A DNA stretch of 64,000 bases, from positions 2,124-66,123 of the forward strand of contig JAUIAT010000010.1 in assembly GCA_030425295.1 (NCBI GenBank). The letters run 5' to 3'. Each line of letters starts with the position of its first letter. Within the stretch, counting starts at the first letter, position 1. Shown here in pieces: positions 45,781-55,205 of this stretch. The stretch is from Gammaproteobacteria bacterium. GTDB lineage: Bacteria; Pseudomonadota; Gammaproteobacteria; JAUIAT01. A program made the translations under genes and the position numbers. The notes beneath the pieces were generated by a model, which was not told the origin of the DNA, made no database searches, and saw only the letters and a list, made by a program, of their open reading frames with translations.

Positions 45781-46563
45781 TTAGAAAGATGAAGGTGTGT
45801 TTATGCGCCCTTCAACCTCCTGCTCTGGTGTGTGTATTGAGTTTTGATGATTATCATAACTCAAAGAGTGCAGGTGTAGCTTATTTTTATTGCTCACTAG
45901 AGTTTTATTTTCCGCATACTTTATTAGATCTCCAACCACCTTCCTTGCATGTTCTTTATATGAAATATCATGATGTTGGTGCACAAGGTAATGCCCTGTC
46001 CTGAAGTTGAATTTATTACCTTTCATGGTACCAGCAATTTGAACTTTTTCTTCTTTGGAAAAGCATAGATGTGTATGTCTTCCCATAAAATACGTATCCT
46101 CGATACAAATTAATTCATTTCGTGGAATTATTAGAAGTTTATGTTCTGTCACTGCAAAAATATATTCTATTTTTTTATCGAGATCTTTATCTCTATTTTT
46201 AATTTCATTTAAAAGTTTACTTGTTAATTCTTTTGGTTTTCCTTTAAAGATAGGATCACACGAATAAGTGACGCACAGATGCTCGCAAAAAAGATCATAA
46301 GGTTTTTGAGCTTTTTTTGCAGTGGGTAATTCAAATATCCGCAACTCTTTATTTAATTGCGGTTTATCATTTCTTATATTAGGAATTGCTCTAATGCTTT
46401 CTCTGAGGTCGGAGTGCCTTTGTAAAAATTTATCTATTTCAATGTTTATAAGCTGGTGAAATTTATTAATCGCATTGCTATCCCTTTTTGCATCAGGCAG
46501 CTTAAAAGGAAATTCTTTAGTGCCGTTTTGTGCCAAAAGATTGTGTGTAGTATTAATAAACAT
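45781..46563 (-). CDS. Hypothetical protein, possible toxin/effector-like domain
   Basis: YIFAVT..KLLI, H..L......V.IAG and TGHY pattern; no signal peptide. Confidence 0.55.
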   Translation of the reverse strand: MFINTTHNLLAQNGTKEFPFKLPDAKRDSNAINKFHQLINIEIDKFLQRHSDLRESIRAIPNIRNDKPQLNKELRIFELPTAKKAQKPYDLFCEHLCVTYSCDPIFKGKPKELTSKLLNEIKNRDKDLDKKIEYIFAVTEHKLLIIPRNELICIEDTYFMGRHTHLCFSKEEKVQIAGTMKGNKFNFRTGHYLVHQHHDISYKEHARKVVGDLIKYAENKTLVSNKNKLHLHSLSYDNHQNSIHTPEQEVEGRINTPSSF

Positions 46564-48430: not shown

Positions 48431-48620
48431 CGTCATCTCGACTGGAGCACCATAGGTGCGTTCCTACGTCATCTCGACTGGAGCACCATAGGTGCGTTCC
48501 TACGTCATCTCGACTGGAGCACCATAGGTGCGTAATGGAGAGATCTAACTGAATTATATTTTCAGATCTCTCGACTACGCTCGAGATGACAGTTGTAGTT
48601 TACGCTCAAGATGACAGCTA
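48431..48620. repeat. 36-bp tandem repeat (x2.8) forming the left arm of a GTCAT..ATGAC REP-like element
   Basis: cgtcatctcgactggagcaccataggtgcg(ttccta) at 48431, 48467 and 48503, then gagagatct...agatctctcgactacgctcgagatgac and a second tacgctcaagatgac. Confidence 0.85.
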
Positions 48621-48803
48621 TAGTTCTTGAGGTGTTAAATTAGGGGGTAGTGACAGCTTCTAGGCGGTGAAACTTGTGACACAGTTCTTTGTAGCGTGTT
48701 TTAGTCAATTGTGCAAATTTGGATGTGTTTACCCTGTGGTCAAATTGAAAAACGACTAAAATGTAATACAATTAAGACAGTAGCCATGGATAAGGTGATT
48801 AAT

Positions 48804-49820
48804 ATGACGTTAAGCAGATTGAACACATCTTTGTTAGTTGGTGTTTTTGGTATTATTTTGTTTTTATTTGTACCTAGCGCTCAGGCAATAAATAATTATT
48901 ATGATCAGCTTCCAGCTGATCTTAGAAAGCCAACAGGTAGAGTGGATTCAGGAGATATTTACCGCCAGGTTTATGCCATTAATATATTATTGGACCAATT
49001 TTTAAAAGCTATGGGGCAAACCAAAAAAAAACATCCCGAGTTAATTATTGCCAATGTGCAACCTAGAGAACTTCTTTTTCAAGCAAAAGCACTCTACGCT
49101 CAAACGAGCAGGTTATCATTTGAGTATACTAGGAAGTCAGAAAGTCCTATATCCCGGGCTAACATTCGCAATGTAAAACTACGAGATATTTGGATTATTG
49201 TTCATGAATCTTTAGTTACTCTTTATAATTTACGACCAGTTCTTGATGTAGTAGAGCCTGTTAAAGTGCCAAAAATTATTGAAAGAAAAACGTTAACAGA
49301 GGTTTATCAGCAAATTCTTGATGTTAATGAAAAATTAGATGATTTGGCTTGGTTTGAATATTCTCCATCTGAATCTTATCAGGTTGTAACTCAAGCTATA
49401 TATTTTGCTAGCGCTTTAATTCAATTTTCTCCTAACCCTAAGCCAATTCCTGAAGCTCCTGGGTTTATAAGAGGTCAGACATCCGCCGATGCGTATAAGC
49501 AGCTATTGAAAATCATGAAAAACATTGATCAAATTGCAAAAATCAGTGGTATTCCAACTTTAACTCTTACCGATAAAGATTTAACCAGCGTTAGACCGGT
49601 TGATGTTTATAATTTAGCAAATTTAGTATTATCAGAACTGCAGTATATTTTTGATTTAGCAGGCGGAAATGAAAATAAGGTTCCTGTGTCATACTATCCA
49701 GGGTGGAAATTTCCTTCACATGTTAACCAAAGAATTGGTGTTTTAAGTCAGCAGGTAGATCAACTGCTAAAAACTGTTAAAGACAACCCTAGTTGGATTC
49801 TTAAAGGAAGGAGATCTTAA
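48804..49820 (+). CDS. Periplasmic helical-repeat protein
   Basis: Start after TAAGGTGA; signal ending AQA; repeated P.(D/E)(V/I/S)Y helices; stop overlaps the cyclase start (TAATG). Confidence 0.75.
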   Translation: MTLSRLNTSLLVGVFGIILFLFVPSAQAINNYYDQLPADLRKPTGRVDSGDIYRQVYAINILLDQFLKAMGQTKKKHPELIIANVQPRELLFQAKALYAQTSRLSFEYTRKSESPISRANIRNVKLRDIWIIVHESLVTLYNLRPVLDVVEPVKVPKIIERKTLTEVYQQILDVNEKLDDLAWFEYSPSESYQVVTQAIYFASALIQFSPNPKPIPEAPGFIRGQTSADAYKQLLKIMKNIDQIAKISGIPTLTLTDKDLTSVRPVDVYNLANLVLSELQYIFDLAGGNENKVPVSYYPGWKFPSHVNQRIGVLSQQVDQLLKTVKDNPSWILKGRRS

Positions 49821-51724
49821 TGACTCCCTTTAGAAAACGTCGAGATGGAGATAAAAAGATAGAAATAAAACCTAATCTTATAAAGAGATTAGGTGAATTT
49901 ATTTTATTTGGTAACTGGAAGACTATTAAAGGCAAGTTCATACATGCATTTATGAATATTGCAATTGCTGCAGTTCTAATGCTAGTTGTAGCATTAACAA
50001 CTTTTATTTGGCTTCGAGATCATGCACTAACTTTGGCTGAGCAAAGGGGGCCGATGGCGCAAGCAGCAATGGGGCTTGATAGCGGATTGCAGCGTAGTTT
50101 ATCCGCTATCAGAGGTTGGGTTTCTGTGCCTGACAAACATTTTCTTAAGGTTTATAAGGATACCTGGAGTGCTCAGGTATGGCCTAGTTTCAATAAACTA
50201 AAAAAACTAGGAGAATCTAACGATAACGAAGAAATCATAGAAAAATTAAAGGAGTTAAATCCGAAACTAGTTCTTTTATTTAATATACAATGGACTATTG
50301 CGGATATTGCTCATACTACGGGAAATAATCCTGCTTTAAAATTCACAAAACTTTCAGTTGCCCCCGTATTAAAAGGAATTATTGGGCTAGTTGATGGGGT
50401 AATTGAATTACAGGAGCAATCAGGGTTAACCGATTCTCGCAAAGTGGCGCTGCTGAAAAATTTAAAAAGCCAATTACTATTAAGTTCGCATGCATTGCAA
50501 GCTTATGCTTTGACTCAGCACGAATCAGATCATCAGGAGTTTTTAACGTATTTTAATTCTGCTTTAGCTTTAAGTGAAGATAAAGATTTATATCCAAATG
50601 GGGGAGAGGATACCTGGATTAATCAGGAAGCTAAAAGACTATACAATAGTTTAACACCTGAGCTATTGGCATATCAATTTTTGTCTCAGGAAGCTGTATA
50701 TTTAGTGCAAGATGGAGAAACTAATATTGCAAATCAATGGTTAGAATTTAGAGCAATGCCTCTTGAGATTGAGATAACCAAGTTGCTTAATAATATTGTT
50801 GAAACACAGCAAACACTTTTGGCGTACGGCAGCCAACAAGTTGCTGATGTTGGATCAGTTGCTCCTTGGGTTATGGCTCTTCTTATTGCATCCACGTTTA
50901 CTATAGCTGTGCTTCTGGCTGTATTTGCTGCCATGCAGCTTGTCAGGCCAATTTCAAATCTTTCTAGTGCCACCAAGAAGTTAGCAAGTCACCAATTAAA
51001 TAAAGATCTTCCAGTATCAAGCAAAGATGAGCTTGGTCAGTTAACTATATCTTTTAATAAAATGAGGGCATCTCTTCAAGCCTCTGAAGAGCAAACTGAA
51101 AAACTTTTGCTTAATACTTTGCCCAAATCCATTGTGAAACGCTTAAGGAATGGTGAAGAGTTAATTGTTGATCAGTTGAATGATGTAAGTGTTGTTTTTC
51201 TGGATTTAGTAGGATTCACTAAACTTGCGTCAAGCGTTCCTCCAAAAAGATTAATTCAAATTTTGAGTTATTTGTTTGCCCACTTTGATACTTTAGTAGA
51301 AAAGCATCATTTAGAAAAAATTAAAACTATTGGTGATGCTTACATGGTTGCTGGGGGAGCTCCTGAGCCAAACAAAAAGCATTTAGAAAACTCTATTGAG
51401 TTTGCACTAGAAGTCGTAAAAAGCTTAGACAAATTTAATAAAAAGCATAAAACTAAACTTCAAGTTCGTGTTGGAGTTCACGTTGGTCAGGTTATCGCTG
51501 GAGTTATAGGTCAGAGTAGATTTACTTACGACTTATGGGGTGATACGGTTAATATTGCAAGCCGCATGGAGTCTCACGGCATCCCAAATTCTGTACAGGT
51601 TACTGATGCGGTATACAATAGATTAAAAAATAAATATGACTTTGAAAAACGTGGTGAGATAGAGATCAAAGGCAAAGAGGGCGAGCACAAAGTATACCTA
51701 GTGAAGGGCAAGAAGCTTAAGTAA
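49820..51724 (+). CDS. Membrane class III adenylate cyclase (TM-sensor-TM-HAMP-CYC)
   Basis: HAMP DELGQL..SFN.M; FLDLVGFT, KIKTIGDAYM and YDLWGDTVNIASRMES motifs. Confidence 0.93.
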   Translation: MTPFRKRRDGDKKIEIKPNLIKRLGEFILFGNWKTIKGKFIHAFMNIAIAAVLMLVVALTTFIWLRDHALTLAEQRGPMAQAAMGLDSGLQRSLSAIRGWVSVPDKHFLKVYKDTWSAQVWPSFNKLKKLGESNDNEEIIEKLKELNPKLVLLFNIQWTIADIAHTTGNNPALKFTKLSVAPVLKGIIGLVDGVIELQEQSGLTDSRKVALLKNLKSQLLLSSHALQAYALTQHESDHQEFLTYFNSALALSEDKDLYPNGGEDTWINQEAKRLYNSLTPELLAYQFLSQEAVYLVQDGETNIANQWLEFRAMPLEIEITKLLNNIVETQQTLLAYGSQQVADVGSVAPWVMALLIASTFTIAVLLAVFAAMQLVRPISNLSSATKKLASHQLNKDLPVSSKDELGQLTISFNKMRASLQASEEQTEKLLLNTLPKSIVKRLRNGEELIVDQLNDVSVVFLDLVGFTKLASSVPPKRLIQILSYLFAHFDTLVEKHHLEKIKTIGDAYMVAGGAPEPNKKHLENSIEFALEVVKSLDKFNKKHKTKLQVRVGVHVGQVIAGVIGQSRFTYDLWGDTVNIASRMESHGIPNSVQVTDAVYNRLKNKYDFEKRGEIEIKGKEGEHKVYLVKGKKLK

Positions 51725-51978
51725 ATATTTATTAAAGAGCATACTATGAAAACTACTACTTACGCGCACCTTGCTCATAAAACATCAATAGTCCTTCTTT
51801 AAAATTACACGTTCATACATTGAGTATAGGATATAATAAATTGGATTTTGATATAATCTTGGTTATGGAATCTGCTCTGAAGTGCACTTCCAGCAAGAGC
51901 CTGAGTTAATGTATGTGGGCGCTTTATTAATCGTTATGAGTCCAGTTAAGTTAATTTTTTTATATGATTAGATTAGCT

Positions 51979-52734
51979 TTAAAATATAAATACTTGTCTT
52001 GGCTCAACAAATCCTGCAAAACCTTCGCTTAATGGGTCAGGTAGTTTTCCTGGGTTGTAGTGGTAGAGCCACATTTTCTTTTTTATGTGATCAGGTAAAG
52101 TTTTCAGCTGATCAAAATGCGAATGAACGCCACTTCGAAATAGCGTAGTTTCACAATCATGAAAAATTATGTCAGCTTTTTCATAGTAAGGCATTAGGTA
52201 ATCTGGCGTAAATTGTGTATCTGTAGTAAATAGCACTGAAGTTTTGTTTGCCTTAAAGAATATACCAAAGCTCGGCATCCAGTTTTTGTTGCTCTTAAAG
52301 TGGTGCGTTCGTATTAGGTTTACTTTAAGCCCATCGTAGTCAAATTTATCTGAAACATGATGAGTATTAAAAAAAGTTTCAATGGTAGCATCTTCATCAT
52401 CAAGAGTTTTTAATCCTGATGAAAGGTTATTTTGCCAAAGAGTAGGTATTAGCTCTTCTGATGCGTAAAGATCCGGTTTGCTTACTGTAGGATCAAATTT
52501 TCTTGCAAGAGCTAACCACTCGAGTCCACCGCTATGATCTGCATGATAATGGCTTATGTAAACTGCGTTAATATCTTTGTATGATAACCCTAAAGCATTC
52601 AAAGAATGTCTAGCATCAGAGCCACAGTCAATTAGGAGGCTTTTACCATTATCCATCTTTAGCAGTGCATTGGAATGATAGTTATTATCTCCAACTGTGA
52701 ATGCAGAACCTGTTCCAAGAAATACTAATTCCAT
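51979..52734 (-). CDS. MBL-fold metallohydrolase (RNase Z / cNMP phosphodiesterase-like)
   Basis: FLGTGSAF, LIDCG, SHYHADH, TTDT, FHDC, VHSH and LYHY motifs. Confidence 0.85.
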   Translation of the reverse strand: MELVFLGTGSAFTVGDNNYHSNALLKMDNGKSLLIDCGSDARHSLNALGLSYKDINAVYISHYHADHSGGLEWLALARKFDPTVSKPDLYASEELIPTLWQNNLSSGLKTLDDEDATIETFFNTHHVSDKFDYDGLKVNLIRTHHFKSNKNWMPSFGIFFKANKTSVLFTTDTQFTPDYLMPYYEKADIIFHDCETTLFRSGVHSHFDQLKTLPDHIKKKMWLYHYNPGKLPDPLSEGFAGFVEPRQVFIF

Positions 52735-55205
52735 TATCTTGACCTTTCATCAGCTACTTTTTCAATGTTGTCAGTAATTGTAGGATAGTTAGCTTTAATT
52801 TTCTCAAAATCTGAACGTTTAAGTTCATAGATTACACAAGGCGTTGTTGCTCTACAGGTTGCTGTACGTTGAACATCTCTAATTAGAGCTATTTCGCCTA
52901 TAAAATCGCCGGCTAATAAGCTAGCTAAAGTTTCTTGCTTACCATCTTTTTCAACGAATACCCTGACTACACCTTTGGCAATGAAATACATTGAGCTTCC
53001 TTTATCACCTTGTCTAATTATTTCGTGACCAATTCCTATGGTGTAAGAATTAAACATTTTATATATTTCTTTAAACTGACTTTTTGACAAGCCATCAAAT
53101 ATATAAGCTTTATTGAGAAGTTCGTAAGGATCAGCTTTATAAGGCTTAATTTTATGCCTATTTATCTCATTAAGCTTTTCATTTAAATTCTCTTTCATTT
53201 CTTTTGCTAGCGATTCAGGAAGTCTTCCAGAATGAGCCTGATCATCAATAGTTTCAATTCTAGACTGAATTACAGCTCTTTCTGTGAAAAGTTTTTGTAG
53301 ATCAAGGATAATGCTAGGGAAGTCCTCTGCCATTTTATCTAACTGTTCCTTTGTCATCTTATTCCAGGAGTTAAAGTGTCTCTTTAAGCTATCTACTGTT
53401 TCCGCATGTAGGCCTGTTTCAATTTTAAATTTATCTAACTCCTCAATAAGTTGATTGCTGCATTCATGTAGTGCCCATACTTCTTCATACTCGCGAATTA
53501 GTCTTTTTGTGCGAAGTGAATCACTCAGAAAACTGAGCCAGGATATAGGCTCAAGAAACTTTATATATAGTAGTTCCAAGTATTTTGGCATTTTGCGAAT
53601 TTCAGTAAGAACCGAAAGCCCTCCACCATAGCGTACAGCATCAACTTGAGCTTTAACCATATCGTGAAGGTTTCTATATGCTGATTCAGATATAAATCCT
53701 TTGCCATAAAGTATATATAGCTGCTTGTCCTCAGAAGTTAGCAAATTCAGTAAAACAAACTGTTCAGTTTTTTTGGCATCTAATTTGTGTTCTTGAAAAC
53801 TTTCAAACTTATCTTTAGATAATCTCACCTCATTTTTTAGCTTTTTGCCGTAACTATTTGATACTGTGGGGGAAAATAGCCCTTGATGGGTAATCTGCTG
53901 CAATCTTTTTTCTGCGTGCTCATAAGAAACAATATTTGTCTCCATCTGGATAAATCTATCAATTAACGGGAGCTTATCTAACCCAAGCTTTCTTAACAAT
54001 TTTTCAATCGATAGGCCCTGCACAAACAGTGTGAAAAGTACCGCACCTGTTGTTATATCAATAAACAGTCCTTGCTCCGGGATATCTTTAAGACCCAAGA
54101 CAATTGCCAATGCAATTGCCCCGCGCAATCCTCCCCACCACATTATTGTCTGGTATGGAATATTTACTTTTGTAGACAGTGGCATTTTTCTGGTTATAGG
54201 GATAAGTCCATAAATTATTACAGCGCGTGAAACTAGCATTGCTATAATAACTACAGTTAACTCAAGCATAAAATTGTTAGAGGGATGTAAGTTGATGCTT
54301 AATCCCACTAATAAGAAAATTACAGCATTAGCAAGATATGCCGCAAACTCCCAGAAGTTATTAAGATATTCTGATACTGAAGGCGACAGCTTAGCTTGCC
54401 CCCAGTTACCCATGGTAAGTCCAGCAGCAACAACGGCCAATACGCCACTTACATGTAGTACGTCATCAGCTATGATAAAAGATGCATAAGCTAGAACCGT
54501 TGTTAAGCAAATCTCTATTTCAGGCTCACCTTTGATATGACCTAGAACCCAACCAACAAACCTAGCAAACAGCCACCCAAAAGCTAATCCCCCAAAAAAC
54601 TCAGTAAAAAATTCAATAAAGCCATGTCCAATATTATGTGAAGTTACTGCTCCCGCTGCAATTATCATTAACATAACTTTTGCTGCAACCAAAGAGGTTG
54701 CATCGTTCATTAAGCTTTCACCCTCTACTAATATCGTTAATCTTTCTGGTGCGCCTAGTTTTTTAAATAAAGAAACAACAGCAACTGGATCTGTTGCGCT
54801 TAGAATTGCACCTAAAAGCAAGGCTGGTAGCAAAGCAATTGCTGTAAAACCTGAAACAAATAGGCCTATTATAGTCATTGATATTAAAAGACCAGGAATA
54901 GCTAGAACCAAAATTGGTGTAATATTCCTTTTTAATTGCTGACTGTCAAGGTTGTAAGCTGATTCAAATATTAAAGTTGGTAAACAAAGATAAAGTATAA
55001 AATCAGGGGTTAATTCATAGTGTGAAATAAAGCTTGCCCAGGATAACCCTTTATCACCTAGGTAGTCTAGAGATATACCAACAGCAACGAGCATGATAGT
55101 AAAGGGAAGTTTAACCCGAATACAAAATGCTGTGACAATAGCAGCTATTAACATCAAGCTTATAGTTGCTGTGACGAGCTCAAGAATTGGCACACCTGTT
55201 TCCAT
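52734..55205 (-). CDS. CPA1 Na+/H+ antiporter with C-terminal cyclic-nucleotide-binding domain
   Basis: LPTLIFES, ATDPVAV, EGESLMND and GGLRGAI motifs; CNBD IIRQGD.G..MYFI..G...GDFIGEIAL....RTATC. Confidence 0.93.
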   Translation of the reverse strand: METGVPILELVTATISLMLIAAIVTAFCIRVKLPFTIMLVAVGISLDYLGDKGLSWASFISHYELTPDFILYLCLPTLIFESAYNLDSQQLKRNITPILVLAIPGLLISMTIIGLFVSGFTAIALLPALLLGAILSATDPVAVVSLFKKLGAPERLTILVEGESLMNDATSLVAAKVMLMIIAAGAVTSHNIGHGFIEFFTEFFGGLAFGWLFARFVGWVLGHIKGEPEIEICLTTVLAYASFIIADDVLHVSGVLAVVAAGLTMGNWGQAKLSPSVSEYLNNFWEFAAYLANAVIFLLVGLSINLHPSNNFMLELTVVIIAMLVSRAVIIYGLIPITRKMPLSTKVNIPYQTIMWWGGLRGAIALAIVLGLKDIPEQGLFIDITTGAVLFTLFVQGLSIEKLLRKLGLDKLPLIDRFIQMETNIVSYEHAEKRLQQITHQGLFSPTVSNSYGKKLKNEVRLSKDKFESFQEHKLDAKKTEQFVLLNLLTSEDKQLYILYGKGFISESAYRNLHDMVKAQVDAVRYGGGLSVLTEIRKMPKYLELLYIKFLEPISWLSFLSDSLRTKRLIREYEEVWALHECSNQLIEELDKFKIETGLHAETVDSLKRHFNSWNKMTKEQLDKMAEDFPSIILDLQKLFTERAVIQSRIETIDDQAHSGRLPESLAKEMKENLNEKLNEINRHKIKPYKADPYELLNKAYIFDGLSKSQFKEIYKMFNSYTIGIGHEIIRQGDKGSSMYFIAKGVVRVFVEKDGKQETLASLLAGDFIGEIALIRDVQRTATCRATTPCVIYELKRSDFEKIKANYPTITDNIEKVADERSR

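Follow-up and report, generated by a model that had tools for sequence, protein, structure and literature searches.

This study examined a 64,000-nucleotide (nt) stretch of DNA from a gammaproteobacterium (the window, in whose coordinates all positions are given), in which four adjacent genes, here called g1 to g4, are predicted to specify a secreted protein, a membrane adenylate cyclase, a metallo-β-lactamase (MBL)-fold hydrolase and a cation/proton antiporter with a cyclic-nucleotide-binding domain (CNBD). The four open reading frames (ORFs) are intact and lie as two convergent pairs, g1-g2 on the plus strand and g4-g3 on the minus strand. The features of the locus, with lengths in amino acids (aa) for the proteins, are as follows:

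48804..49820, plus strand: g1, secreted or periplasmic helical protein, 338 aa (ORF call), the proposed co-sensor of the cyclase
49820..51724, plus strand: g2, membrane sensor-HAMP-class IIIa adenylate cyclase, 634 aa (predicted from ORF, Pfam and residue alignment)
50030..50848, plus strand: periplasmic helical sensor of g2, about aa 71-343 (hydropathy)
50927..51082, plus strand: HAMP domain of g2, aa 370-421 (PF00672)
51173..51706, plus strand: cyclase catalytic domain of g2, aa 452-629 (PF00211)
51725..51978, no strand: convergent intergenic spacer of 254 nt, AT-rich, between the cyclase and MBL genes
51979..52734, minus strand: g3, predicted Apyc1-family MBL-fold (class II type) cyclic-nucleotide phosphodiesterase, 251 aa
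52734..55205, minus strand: g4, CPA1 Na+(K+)/H+ antiporter with a cytosolic helical domain and a C-terminal CNBD, 823 aa
52788..53030, minus strand: CNBD of g4, aa 726-806 (PF00027)
53112..53966, minus strand: cytosolic helical coupling domain of g4, about aa 414-698 (AF2 helices 414-682)
53988..55151, minus strand: transport domain of g4, aa 19-406 (PF00999, fold, motifs)

In both pairs, the two genes are joined by a one-base overlap within TAATG, where the stop codon of g1 meets the start codon of g2 and the stop codon of g4 meets the start codon of g3. A first-pass annotation, made from the letters of this DNA alone, had described these two convergent TAATG-joined pairs, and both the four ORFs and their place were confirmed. 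The ORF list starts g1 at GTG 48711; we prefer ATG 48804, as the first-pass annotation did, because a Shine-Dalgarno-like AAGGTG lies upstream of it, a signal peptide of 28 aa (aa 1-28, 48804-48887) follows it, and four homologues begin there.

The product of g2 carries a sensor and a cyclase in one chain. Pfam identified a HAMP domain (PF00672, 53.2 bits, aa 370-421) and a catalytic domain (PF00211, Guanylate_cyc, 210.8 bits, aa 452-629) that spans profile positions 5-182 of 183, and by hydropathy two hydrophobic segments (aa 38-70 and 344-380), assigned as transmembrane (TM) segments TM1 at aa 38-70 and TM2 at aa 344-370, flank a periplasmic stretch of about 275 residues. Alignment to the C1 and C2 domains of AC9 and to mycobacterial Cya assigned all six canonical residues to the single chain, namely the metal-binding D462 and D506, the substrate-specifying K502 and D571, and the transition-state N578 and R582. 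K502 and D506 lie within KIKTIGD and D571 within YDLWGD, and the lysine and aspartate that had been picked out in these motifs as ATP-selecting residues of a TM-sensor-HAMP class III cyclase are thereby upheld. Against the PDB, the catalytic domain scored 180-232 bits with AC9, AC8, AC5 and mycobacterial Cya, versus at most 125 bits with guanylate cyclases. Judged by these residues, g2 should work as a homodimer and make cyclic AMP (cAMP) from ATP. It resembles the class IIIa membrane cyclases (mycobacterial Cya/Rv1625c type and mammalian transmembrane adenylyl cyclases) in the catalytic domain and all six residues; however, those enzymes carry a six-TM anchor, whereas g2 has a two-TM periplasmic helical sensor and a HAMP domain, plus a secreted partner. 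A word-indexed search of 5.8 billion proteins with the sensor (aa 40-370) returned only the protein itself among 8000 scored candidates, which is no proof of uniqueness, and the ESM Atlas leads for this region were HAMP, 4HB_MCP and CHASE3-like proteins.

The candidate partner, g1, belongs to no family in Pfam, NCBIfam or PADLOC, and the search of the 5.8 billion proteins found four homologues at 35-43% identity. Its AF2 model (pLDDT 80.1) had no clear solved match among 48,161 PDB representatives (best Z 5.3), and most of the structure matches cover only the N-terminal helix, including the mis-called leader and the signal peptide; such weak matches to a predicted model are no demonstration of a new fold. 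The ESM Atlas gave only unnamed clusters for g1, at best 0.90. A complex model of the g2 ectodomain (aa 68-345) with mature g1 reached an ipSAE of 0.70 (0.68, 0.70 and 0.71 in three runs), versus 0.00 in each of three control pairings, with a partner pLDDT of at least 84 and at least 90% contact agreement between runs. Among 80 solved complexes 58 attain this mark, and among 110 mismatched pairs 2 do, a rough calibration since our own thin alignments were used. The modelled interface joins the invariant YYPGW of g1 to the conserved motif region of the sensor, and the model supports the proposal that g1 binds the periplasmic domain of the cyclase.

The distribution of g1 bears on the same proposal. 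A homologue was found in one of 149 scored Legionellaceae genomes (G091; two further genomes were unscored), and the search of the L. londiniensis genome returned none. In G091 (locus L098, contig G091:C115, 2261-10659), the g1 homologue lies directly upstream, on the same strand, of a gene for a 1,424-aa HAMP-PAS-GAF hybrid histidine kinase, whose N-terminus matches the g2 ectodomain at 25% identity (E 7e-19) and shares with it the motif W-x-I-A-D-I-A-H-T-x-G-N-x-P-A. Since this homologue precedes a kinase with a g2-like N-terminus, g1 and the g2-type ectodomain appear to travel together with different outputs. Downstream of the kinase gene lie genes for CheR, CheB and a receiver-GGDEF-EAL protein, and the G091 locus is thus an input module of the g1/g2 type wired to a cyclic di-GMP output.

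The product of g4 is built from three parts. Pfam assigned a transport domain (PF00999, Na_H_Exchanger, 230.4 bits, aa 19-406) and a CNBD (PF00027, cNMP_binding, 79.2 bits, aa 726-806), and the score against the CPA1 model TIGR00831 (a_cpa1), 245.8 bits, is slightly below the cut-off of 279.6. The transport motifs are T138-D139, N167-D168 and R361; across 21 homologues D168 and R361 never vary, and at least 90% keep D139 and N167. The TD and ND pairs are ion-binding motifs in NhaP and NHE antiporters, which also have the conserved arginine. The phosphate-binding cassette of the CNBD reads G770-E771...R780-T781-A782, with G770, E771, R780 and A782 invariant in the 21 homologues, and the domain, whose strands span 719-796 in the AF2 model, aligns with the cassettes of PKA-R, PKG and SthK and also matches HCN and CAP. 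The Pfam matches, the residues and the model agree with the initial description of g4 as an 823-aa CPA1 antiporter with a long helical linker and an intact CNBD (GEIAL...RTA).

The fold of g4 was compared with solved exchangers by use of an AF2 model made from a 21-sequence alignment (pLDDT 79.7, pTM 0.64). Over its full length, this model matched sea-urchin SLC9C1 and plant SOS1 with Foldseek E values of 6e-32 to 8e-30 and a query TM-score (TMq) of 0.62-0.65, whereas exchangers matching in the membrane domain only had a TMq of about 0.45. With VIA-align, g4 residues 5-684 superposed on SLC9C1 (8xqa_A) at Z 46.9 and a root-mean-square deviation (rmsd) of 4.6 Å over 646 aligned residues, and residues 5-822 on Arabidopsis SOS1 (7y3e) at Z 45.8 over 729. 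The transmembrane domain (TMD) alone, which has the NhaA-type fold, fitted the TMDs of SOS1, NHE1 and PaNhaP at Z 41-49 and rmsd 1.9-3.4 Å, with the rice SOS1 TMD (8j2m) at Z 49.4, rmsd 1.9 Å and 398 aligned residues. By sequence, too, the best PDB matches for the membrane domain were SLC9C1 (174 bits) and SOS1 (170 bits), versus 118 bits for NHE1. The parallel to SLC9C1 and SOS1 that the first-pass annotation had drawn from the domain order therefore extends over the full-length fold, through TMD, helical domain and CNBD.

SLC9C1, the sperm Na+/H+ exchanger of sea urchin and mammals, shares with g4 the CPA1 domain, the helical coupling domain and the C-terminal CNBD, but has an S4-type voltage-sensor domain, whereas g4 passes straight from the helical domain into the CNBD: beyond aa 407 its model shows no further TM bundle, the helices at 414-682 lie in the cytosol, and the alignments with SLC9C1 cover 646-783 residues of a chain range spanning about 870-1,026. 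SLC9C1 is eukaryotic and functionally tied to soluble adenylyl cyclase, with an affinity for cAMP given as 2.4 µM (PMC10620091), whereas g4 is bacterial, stands beside a HAMP-coupled membrane cyclase and, unlike SLC9C1, is translationally coupled to a phosphodiesterase-family gene, g3. Plant SOS1/NHX7 has the same three-part architecture and extends past its CNBD-like domain into an autoinhibitory tail, which is described as being released by phosphorylation (PMC10372031, PMC7573149); in contrast, g4 stops at aa 823, some 17 residues beyond its CNBD match, and its cyclic nucleoside monophosphate (cNMP) cassette is canonical. As it has neither voltage sensor nor autoinhibitory tail, g4 falls outside the SLC9C and SOS1/NHX7 families, and by its model it is predicted to work like SLC9C1 and SOS1 while being a member of neither. 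The bacterial CNBD channels SthK, MloK1 and LliK likewise carry a C-terminal CNBD through which a cNMP directly controls a membrane transport protein (g4 CNBD against SthK, E 1.3e-17), but there the domain regulates a channel pore, whereas g4 is a secondary-active antiporter.

For g3, the first-pass annotation had proposed a phosphodiesterase from an HxHxDH motif, and at the level of the family the case is now stronger than the motif alone. The protein matches Anti-Pycsar_Apyc1 (PF23023) over aa 4-227 at 83.3 bits (cut-off 50), as well as Lactamase_B_2, and its best PDB relatives are three Apyc1 structures, 7u2r (E 1.4e-29), 7t28 and 7u2s, down to E 6e-24. The HxHxDH residues are H62, H64, D66 and H67, and the further ligands H144/H145, D172, H192, H204/H206 and H225 align with 7u2r and 7t28; H62, H64, D66, H67, H145, D172 and H204 are invariant in 17 members of the clade described below. 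It could be argued that g3 is some other MBL hydrolase, such as an RNase Z-like nuclease or a lactonase, placed here for reasons unrelated to signalling, since the NCBIfam model for RNase Z scores 66.5 bits, on the N-terminal half only, and the model for a cyclic nucleotide-degrading phosphodiesterase 32.8 bits against a cut-off of 400. We regard this as improbable, given that the PF23023 match is full-length and above cut-off, that the Apyc1 structures match at E 1e-24 to 1e-29 versus 9e-8 for RNase Z in the PDB, and that the adjacency of the whole clade to cyclases and CNBD genes is hard to account for otherwise.

Apyc1 was described as a class II MBL phosphodiesterase with broad activity on cyclic mononucleotides (Hobbs et al. 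2022, PMC9117128), and family members are reported to hydrolyse cAMP, cGMP, cCMP and cUMP (PMC9117128; bioRxiv 10.1101/2024.08.21.608784). According to the AntiDefenseFinder preprint (10.1101/2024.08.21.608784), 80.7% of 2,301 Apyc1 genes are chromosomal, the chromosomal homologues are predicted regulators of cAMP that occasionally stand beside a cyclase, and loop length decides the activity of the published homologues. A loop specific to Apyc1 reaches into the nucleobase pocket and goes with broad specificity. g3 shares PF23023 and the metal ligands with the known class II enzymes (Apyc1 of phages SBSphiJ and Bsp38, Paenibacillus Apyc1, B. subtilis YhfI), but its setting is chromosomal and housekeeping, with a cyclase and a CNBD transporter, and not one of anti-defence; the clade of g3 is also a separate gammaproteobacterial group, set off by a branch of 1.41 from the other Apyc1-family matches of the class.

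Six-frame profile searches of the whole genome (G000; 1,803,692 bp, 28 contigs, completeness 100, contamination 0.09) demonstrated that the locus holds the only components of their kind. The class III cyclase family PF00211, the CNBD family PF00027 and the Apyc1 family PF23023 each match once, in g2, g4 and g3, respectively, all inside one 6.4-kb stretch, and there is no match genome-wide to the class I cyclase (PF01295), the CYTH or class IV cyclase (PF01928) or PDEase_II (PF02112). The circuit had been called self-contained beforehand, and for these families that holds across the genome. As PF00027 matches only once, the genome lacks a CRP-type regulator and, apart from g4, any canonical cNMP receptor. 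This single-copy inventory is the strongest single argument that the product of g2 acts on g4.

We therefore propose, with a probability of about 60%, that the four genes form a cAMP writer-reader-eraser module whose output is ion transport and not transcription. In this mechanism, g1 would be exported to the periplasm and dock on the helical periplasmic domain of g2, and a periplasmic cue would pass through TM2 and the HAMP domain to the homodimeric class IIIa cyclase, which, as its residues suggest, would make cAMP from ATP. The cAMP would bind the C-terminal CNBD of g4, and the signal would travel through the helical coupling domain, as in SLC9C1, and alter electroneutral Na+(K+)/H+ exchange; by analogy with SLC9C1 our guess for the direction of regulation is activation. 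Finally g3, translationally coupled to g4, would hydrolyse cAMP to 5'-AMP and reset the signal, as the biochemistry of its family suggests.

The neighbourhoods of g3-like genes were surveyed in 400 genomes of the class. PF23023 was above cut-off in 27 of the 400, G000 included, and 27 places from the 26 other genomes were taken (the sub-cut-off rows G016, G384 and G022 were excluded). Twenty of these places are 41-57% identical to g3 and the other seven 26-32%; the 20 close places and g3 form a clade of 21 rows on a long branch with 99/99 support, in a tree made without L131 (a 7.6-kb contig). Alignment A4 excludes L135, L140, L141 and L150. A cyclase domain lies within 6.5 kb in 10/20 clade loci versus 0/7 of the distant Apyc1-family loci, and in nine of these ten it is zero to two genes off, often overlapping (3.8 kb off in the tenth). 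CNBD genes are close to 5/20 clade loci, in the form of a stand-alone CNBD between cyclase and MBL, SulP-STAS-CNBD, MMPL-CNBD and CNBD-PqqD-M50. The sensors of the partner cyclases are unrelated to one another (dCache, MASE2, CHASE2, kinase-AAA-TPR-GAF), and their substrate positions hold K with D, T or S in 15 of the 16 examined, L135 being the exception. At the genome level, a class III cyclase is present in 18 of the 19 other clade-bearing genomes, being the sole one in nine, versus 262 of 401 in the sample, a figure that rests partly on the unpublished genomes G038, G446, G458 and G291.

In metagenomes, 80 loci with 46-56% identity were recovered when 17 members of the clade were aligned and used as the query. 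For the 31 of them flanked by 2.5 kb or more on each side, the numbers with a neighbour inside 2.5 kb were 14 for a cyclase, 5 for a CNBD and 18 for one or the other. The ten metagenome CNBD neighbours that were examined comprise five CNBD-only proteins, two kinase-like-CNBD proteins, two MscS-CNBD channels, one CNBD-patatin and one CRP. The pairing of this MBL clade with a cyclase or a CNBD is strong and extends across many families. The CNBD fusions beside the clade at L135, L138, L217, L238, L172, L197 and L244, namely MMPL-CNBD, SulP-STAS-CNBD, MscS-CNBD (two), CNBD-NTE_Ploop-patatin and kinase-like-CNBD (two), appear to have received little study.

Homologues of g4 were surveyed separately. 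The CPA1-CNBD architecture is widespread: at least 1,524 proteins matched g4 at E <= 0.001 among 8,000 scored candidates, the nearest at 54% identity, and all of the top 120 matches listed, which are bacterial, carry both domains; longer family members of 969-991 aa also exist. We searched 80 genome loci, with flanks of up to 10 kb, by tblastn for the MBL and the cyclase domain. A CNBD was detectable in 46 of the 80 and a cyclase domain nearby in 8 of the 80; among the 46, a cyclase lies within 10 kb in six and is the nearest or next-nearest gene in five (L029, L030, L032, L061 and L071, from Photobacterium, a Rhodospirillaceae metagenome-assembled genome (MAG), a Verrucomicrobiia MAG and Fulvimarina). 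The link between antiporter and cyclase is thus real, as a minority pattern. In the two Photobacterium loci (L029 and L030, 9953-12802), the CPA1 proteins are 948-949 aa long with two tandem CNBD matches, and at a distance of one or two genes there is a cyclase that shares 44-47% identity with the catalytic domain of g2.

These surveys and the genome inventory also supply several points that weigh against the four-gene module. The first-pass annotation had proposed co-occurrence of the four families as a check on its idea, and its absence as a refutation; the links found are only pairwise, with an MBL gene beside none of the 80 antiporter homologues (tblastn, flanks up to 10 kb) and a CPA1 gene beside none of the 20 genome and 80 metagenome loci of the MBL clade (0/100 in all). 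The four-gene set was found nowhere else in the loci examined, and a conserved four-family module does not hold. In 40 of the 46 CNBD-bearing antiporter loci no cyclase lies within 10 kb, so most CPA1-CNBD proteins are served by distant cyclases or by none, and the closest homologue (54%) has neither cyclase nor MBL within 10 kb. All comparisons of the arrangement are distant ones, because the genome stands alone for its order in the collection compared and the 60 relatives are of the same class only; its best protein matches, at 42-54% identity, are to Legionella species. Within the locus, the g1-g2 and g4-g3 pairs are separate, convergent transcription units. Elsewhere in the genome, a 254-aa CpdA-like metallophosphoesterase (G000:C22:51684-52328), whose gene adjoins a queuosine-precursor transporter gene, scores 110 bits with NF008359 (cut-off 225) and 81 bits with SpdA and may be a second cAMP phosphodiesterase, so that g3 is perhaps not the sole eraser. 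Three GAF-domain proteins are conceivable other receptors, and with three further PF00999 transporters g4 is not the sole cation/proton antiporter.

Read in one way, these counts would confine the functional unit to the cyclase and the MBL enzyme, with the antiporter a chance neighbour and its CNBD incidental, vestigial or structural and autoinhibitory as in SOS1. The adjacency of MBL and cyclase genes recurs (10/20 and 14/31) whereas that of MBL and CPA1 genes never does (0/80 and 0/100), and 40/46 CPA1-CNBD genes stand without a cyclase. However, the only CNBD of the genome is in g4, without which cAMP would have no other canonical receptor; the binding cassette of g4 is complete and does not vary across its family; the TAATG overlap of g4 and g3 implies co-translation; and the MBL clade elsewhere adjoins CNBD transporters and channels (MscS-CNBD, SulP-STAS-CNBD, MMPL-CNBD), among which a CNBD antiporter fits as a neighbour. 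We consider this restricted unit unlikely, while giving it serious weight, and retain the module with g4 as its reader.

A role in anti-phage defence has to be considered as well, since a cyclase, a CNBD membrane protein and an Apyc1-type enzyme also occur together in the context of Pycsar. Here the cyclase would answer infection with a cyclic nucleotide, the CNBD-membrane effector would collapse ion gradients in an abortive infection, and the Apyc1-like enzyme would act as a brake. PADLOC indeed gave 62.8 bits for PycC with g2 and 45-56 bits for PycTIR/Effector models with the CNBD of g4, and g3 is in the family named for the anti-Pycsar enzyme, whose host homologues were raised as possible regulators of Pycsar and for further signalling systems built on cNMPs in PMC9117128. 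The PADLOC scores are, however, far under the 210.8 and 79.2 bits from Pfam and reflect shared domains only. K502 and D571 are of the purine (ATP) type, whereas the Pycsar cyclase makes pyrimidine products; the periplasmic sensor, the HAMP domain and the secreted partner point to environmental sensing; and the supposed effector is a housekeeping transporter, complete and with its motifs intact, from a family of more than 1,500 proteins. The cyclase and CNBD genes are on opposite strands and not in one operon. The flanks are housekeeping genes (DUF2066, Hda, two amino-acid permeases, a SpoU methyltransferase, PlsY and an M48 peptidase), G+C content (GC) is even across the region at 0.34-0.39, in a window of about 36% GC, and the four-gene locus is no genomic island. 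A Pycsar-like system is a very remote prospect here.

The identity of the messenger is a further point. The R-T-A cassette alone fails to separate cAMP from cGMP, as known from PKG and HCN, which weighs against a firm assignment to cAMP, and R-T-A also occurs in cGMP-preferring CNBDs. One cyclase linked to the MBL clade (L135, 10331-12106; 591 aa), whose gene overlaps that of the MBL enzyme, carries E and G where the substrate is specified, which suggests a guanylate cyclase paired with a phosphodiesterase of the g3 type, and Apyc1 enzymes are broad in specificity. cGMP or another cNMP could accordingly be the signal at this locus too; we think it highly improbable, since the K/D pair of g2 aligns with the adenine-specifying residues of AC9 C2 and the closest solved relatives of g2 are adenylate cyclases at 182-232 bits, versus at most 125 bits for guanylate cyclases.

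Some further features of the surroundings were recorded. Promoter- and terminator-like sites showed no excess over shuffled controls, and the spacer at 51725-51978 contains no consensus terminator, its hairpins being weak at about -10 kcal/mol. The 525-nt gap between an amino-acid permease gene and g1 holds a 36-nt tandem repeat of 2.9 copies with 100% match (window 48431-48533) and a 25-nt repeat of 2 copies with 88% match (window 48576-48625). Between hda and the amino-acid permease gene lies a 260-aa ORF (window 45781-46563, minus strand) without a Pfam family at E <= 0.001. The locus is present in three DNA sequencing runs from two studies, two of these runs being possible sources, and no RNA run is listed.

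With regard to previous knowledge, cyclic-nucleotide gating of a secondary transporter has, to our knowledge, been detailed only for the eukaryotic SLC9C1, SOS1 having the same architecture and putting it to another use. The first-pass annotation had stated that no characterised bacterial equivalent was known. No characterised bacterial CPA1-CNBD antiporter was found in the full-text literature searched, which covers few subscription journals, and part of the module idea is in print (10.1101/2024.08.21.608784). The eraser idea is already published, and our additions are its frequency within the MBL clade and the CNBD effectors. A CNBD transporter in an Arthrospira genome paper was rejected as a precedent, being ATP:ADP antiporter-like and not CPA1. 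A 2020 review (PMC7573149) states that the combination of exchanger and CNBD is "not present in bacteria", and the available excerpts of the SLC9C1 papers contain no mention of prokaryotic CNBD-bearing homologues. The statement of the review is contradicted by the 120/120 top bacterial matches listed that carry both domains.

The locus may be read more widely, in one joint and tentative interpretation to which we give rather less than even odds. In this reduced genome, cAMP with a single writer, a single canonical reader and an eraser of its own would act purely after translation, on Na+/H+ balance, with no regulator of the CRP type involved; SLC9C1 and SOS1 would have their prokaryotic equivalent, and possibly the origin of their regulatory layout, in the bacterial CPA1-helical-CNBD family; and g1 with the g2 ectodomain would make up a periplasmic receptor of two proteins, so far undescribed, that can feed either a cyclase or a histidine kinase. 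One gammaproteobacterial clade of the Apyc1 family stands habitually beside class III cyclases and CNBD effectors, and the counts for this clade back the view, already published, that chromosomal homologues of Apyc1 serve as housekeeping erasers of cNMPs. Without a voltage sensor, g4 would be a small, easily expressed model of the coupling between CNBD and exchanger, with its own cyclase and phosphodiesterase included. If the proposed module is true, this locus would offer a case in which a bacterium signals through cAMP without passing through transcription.

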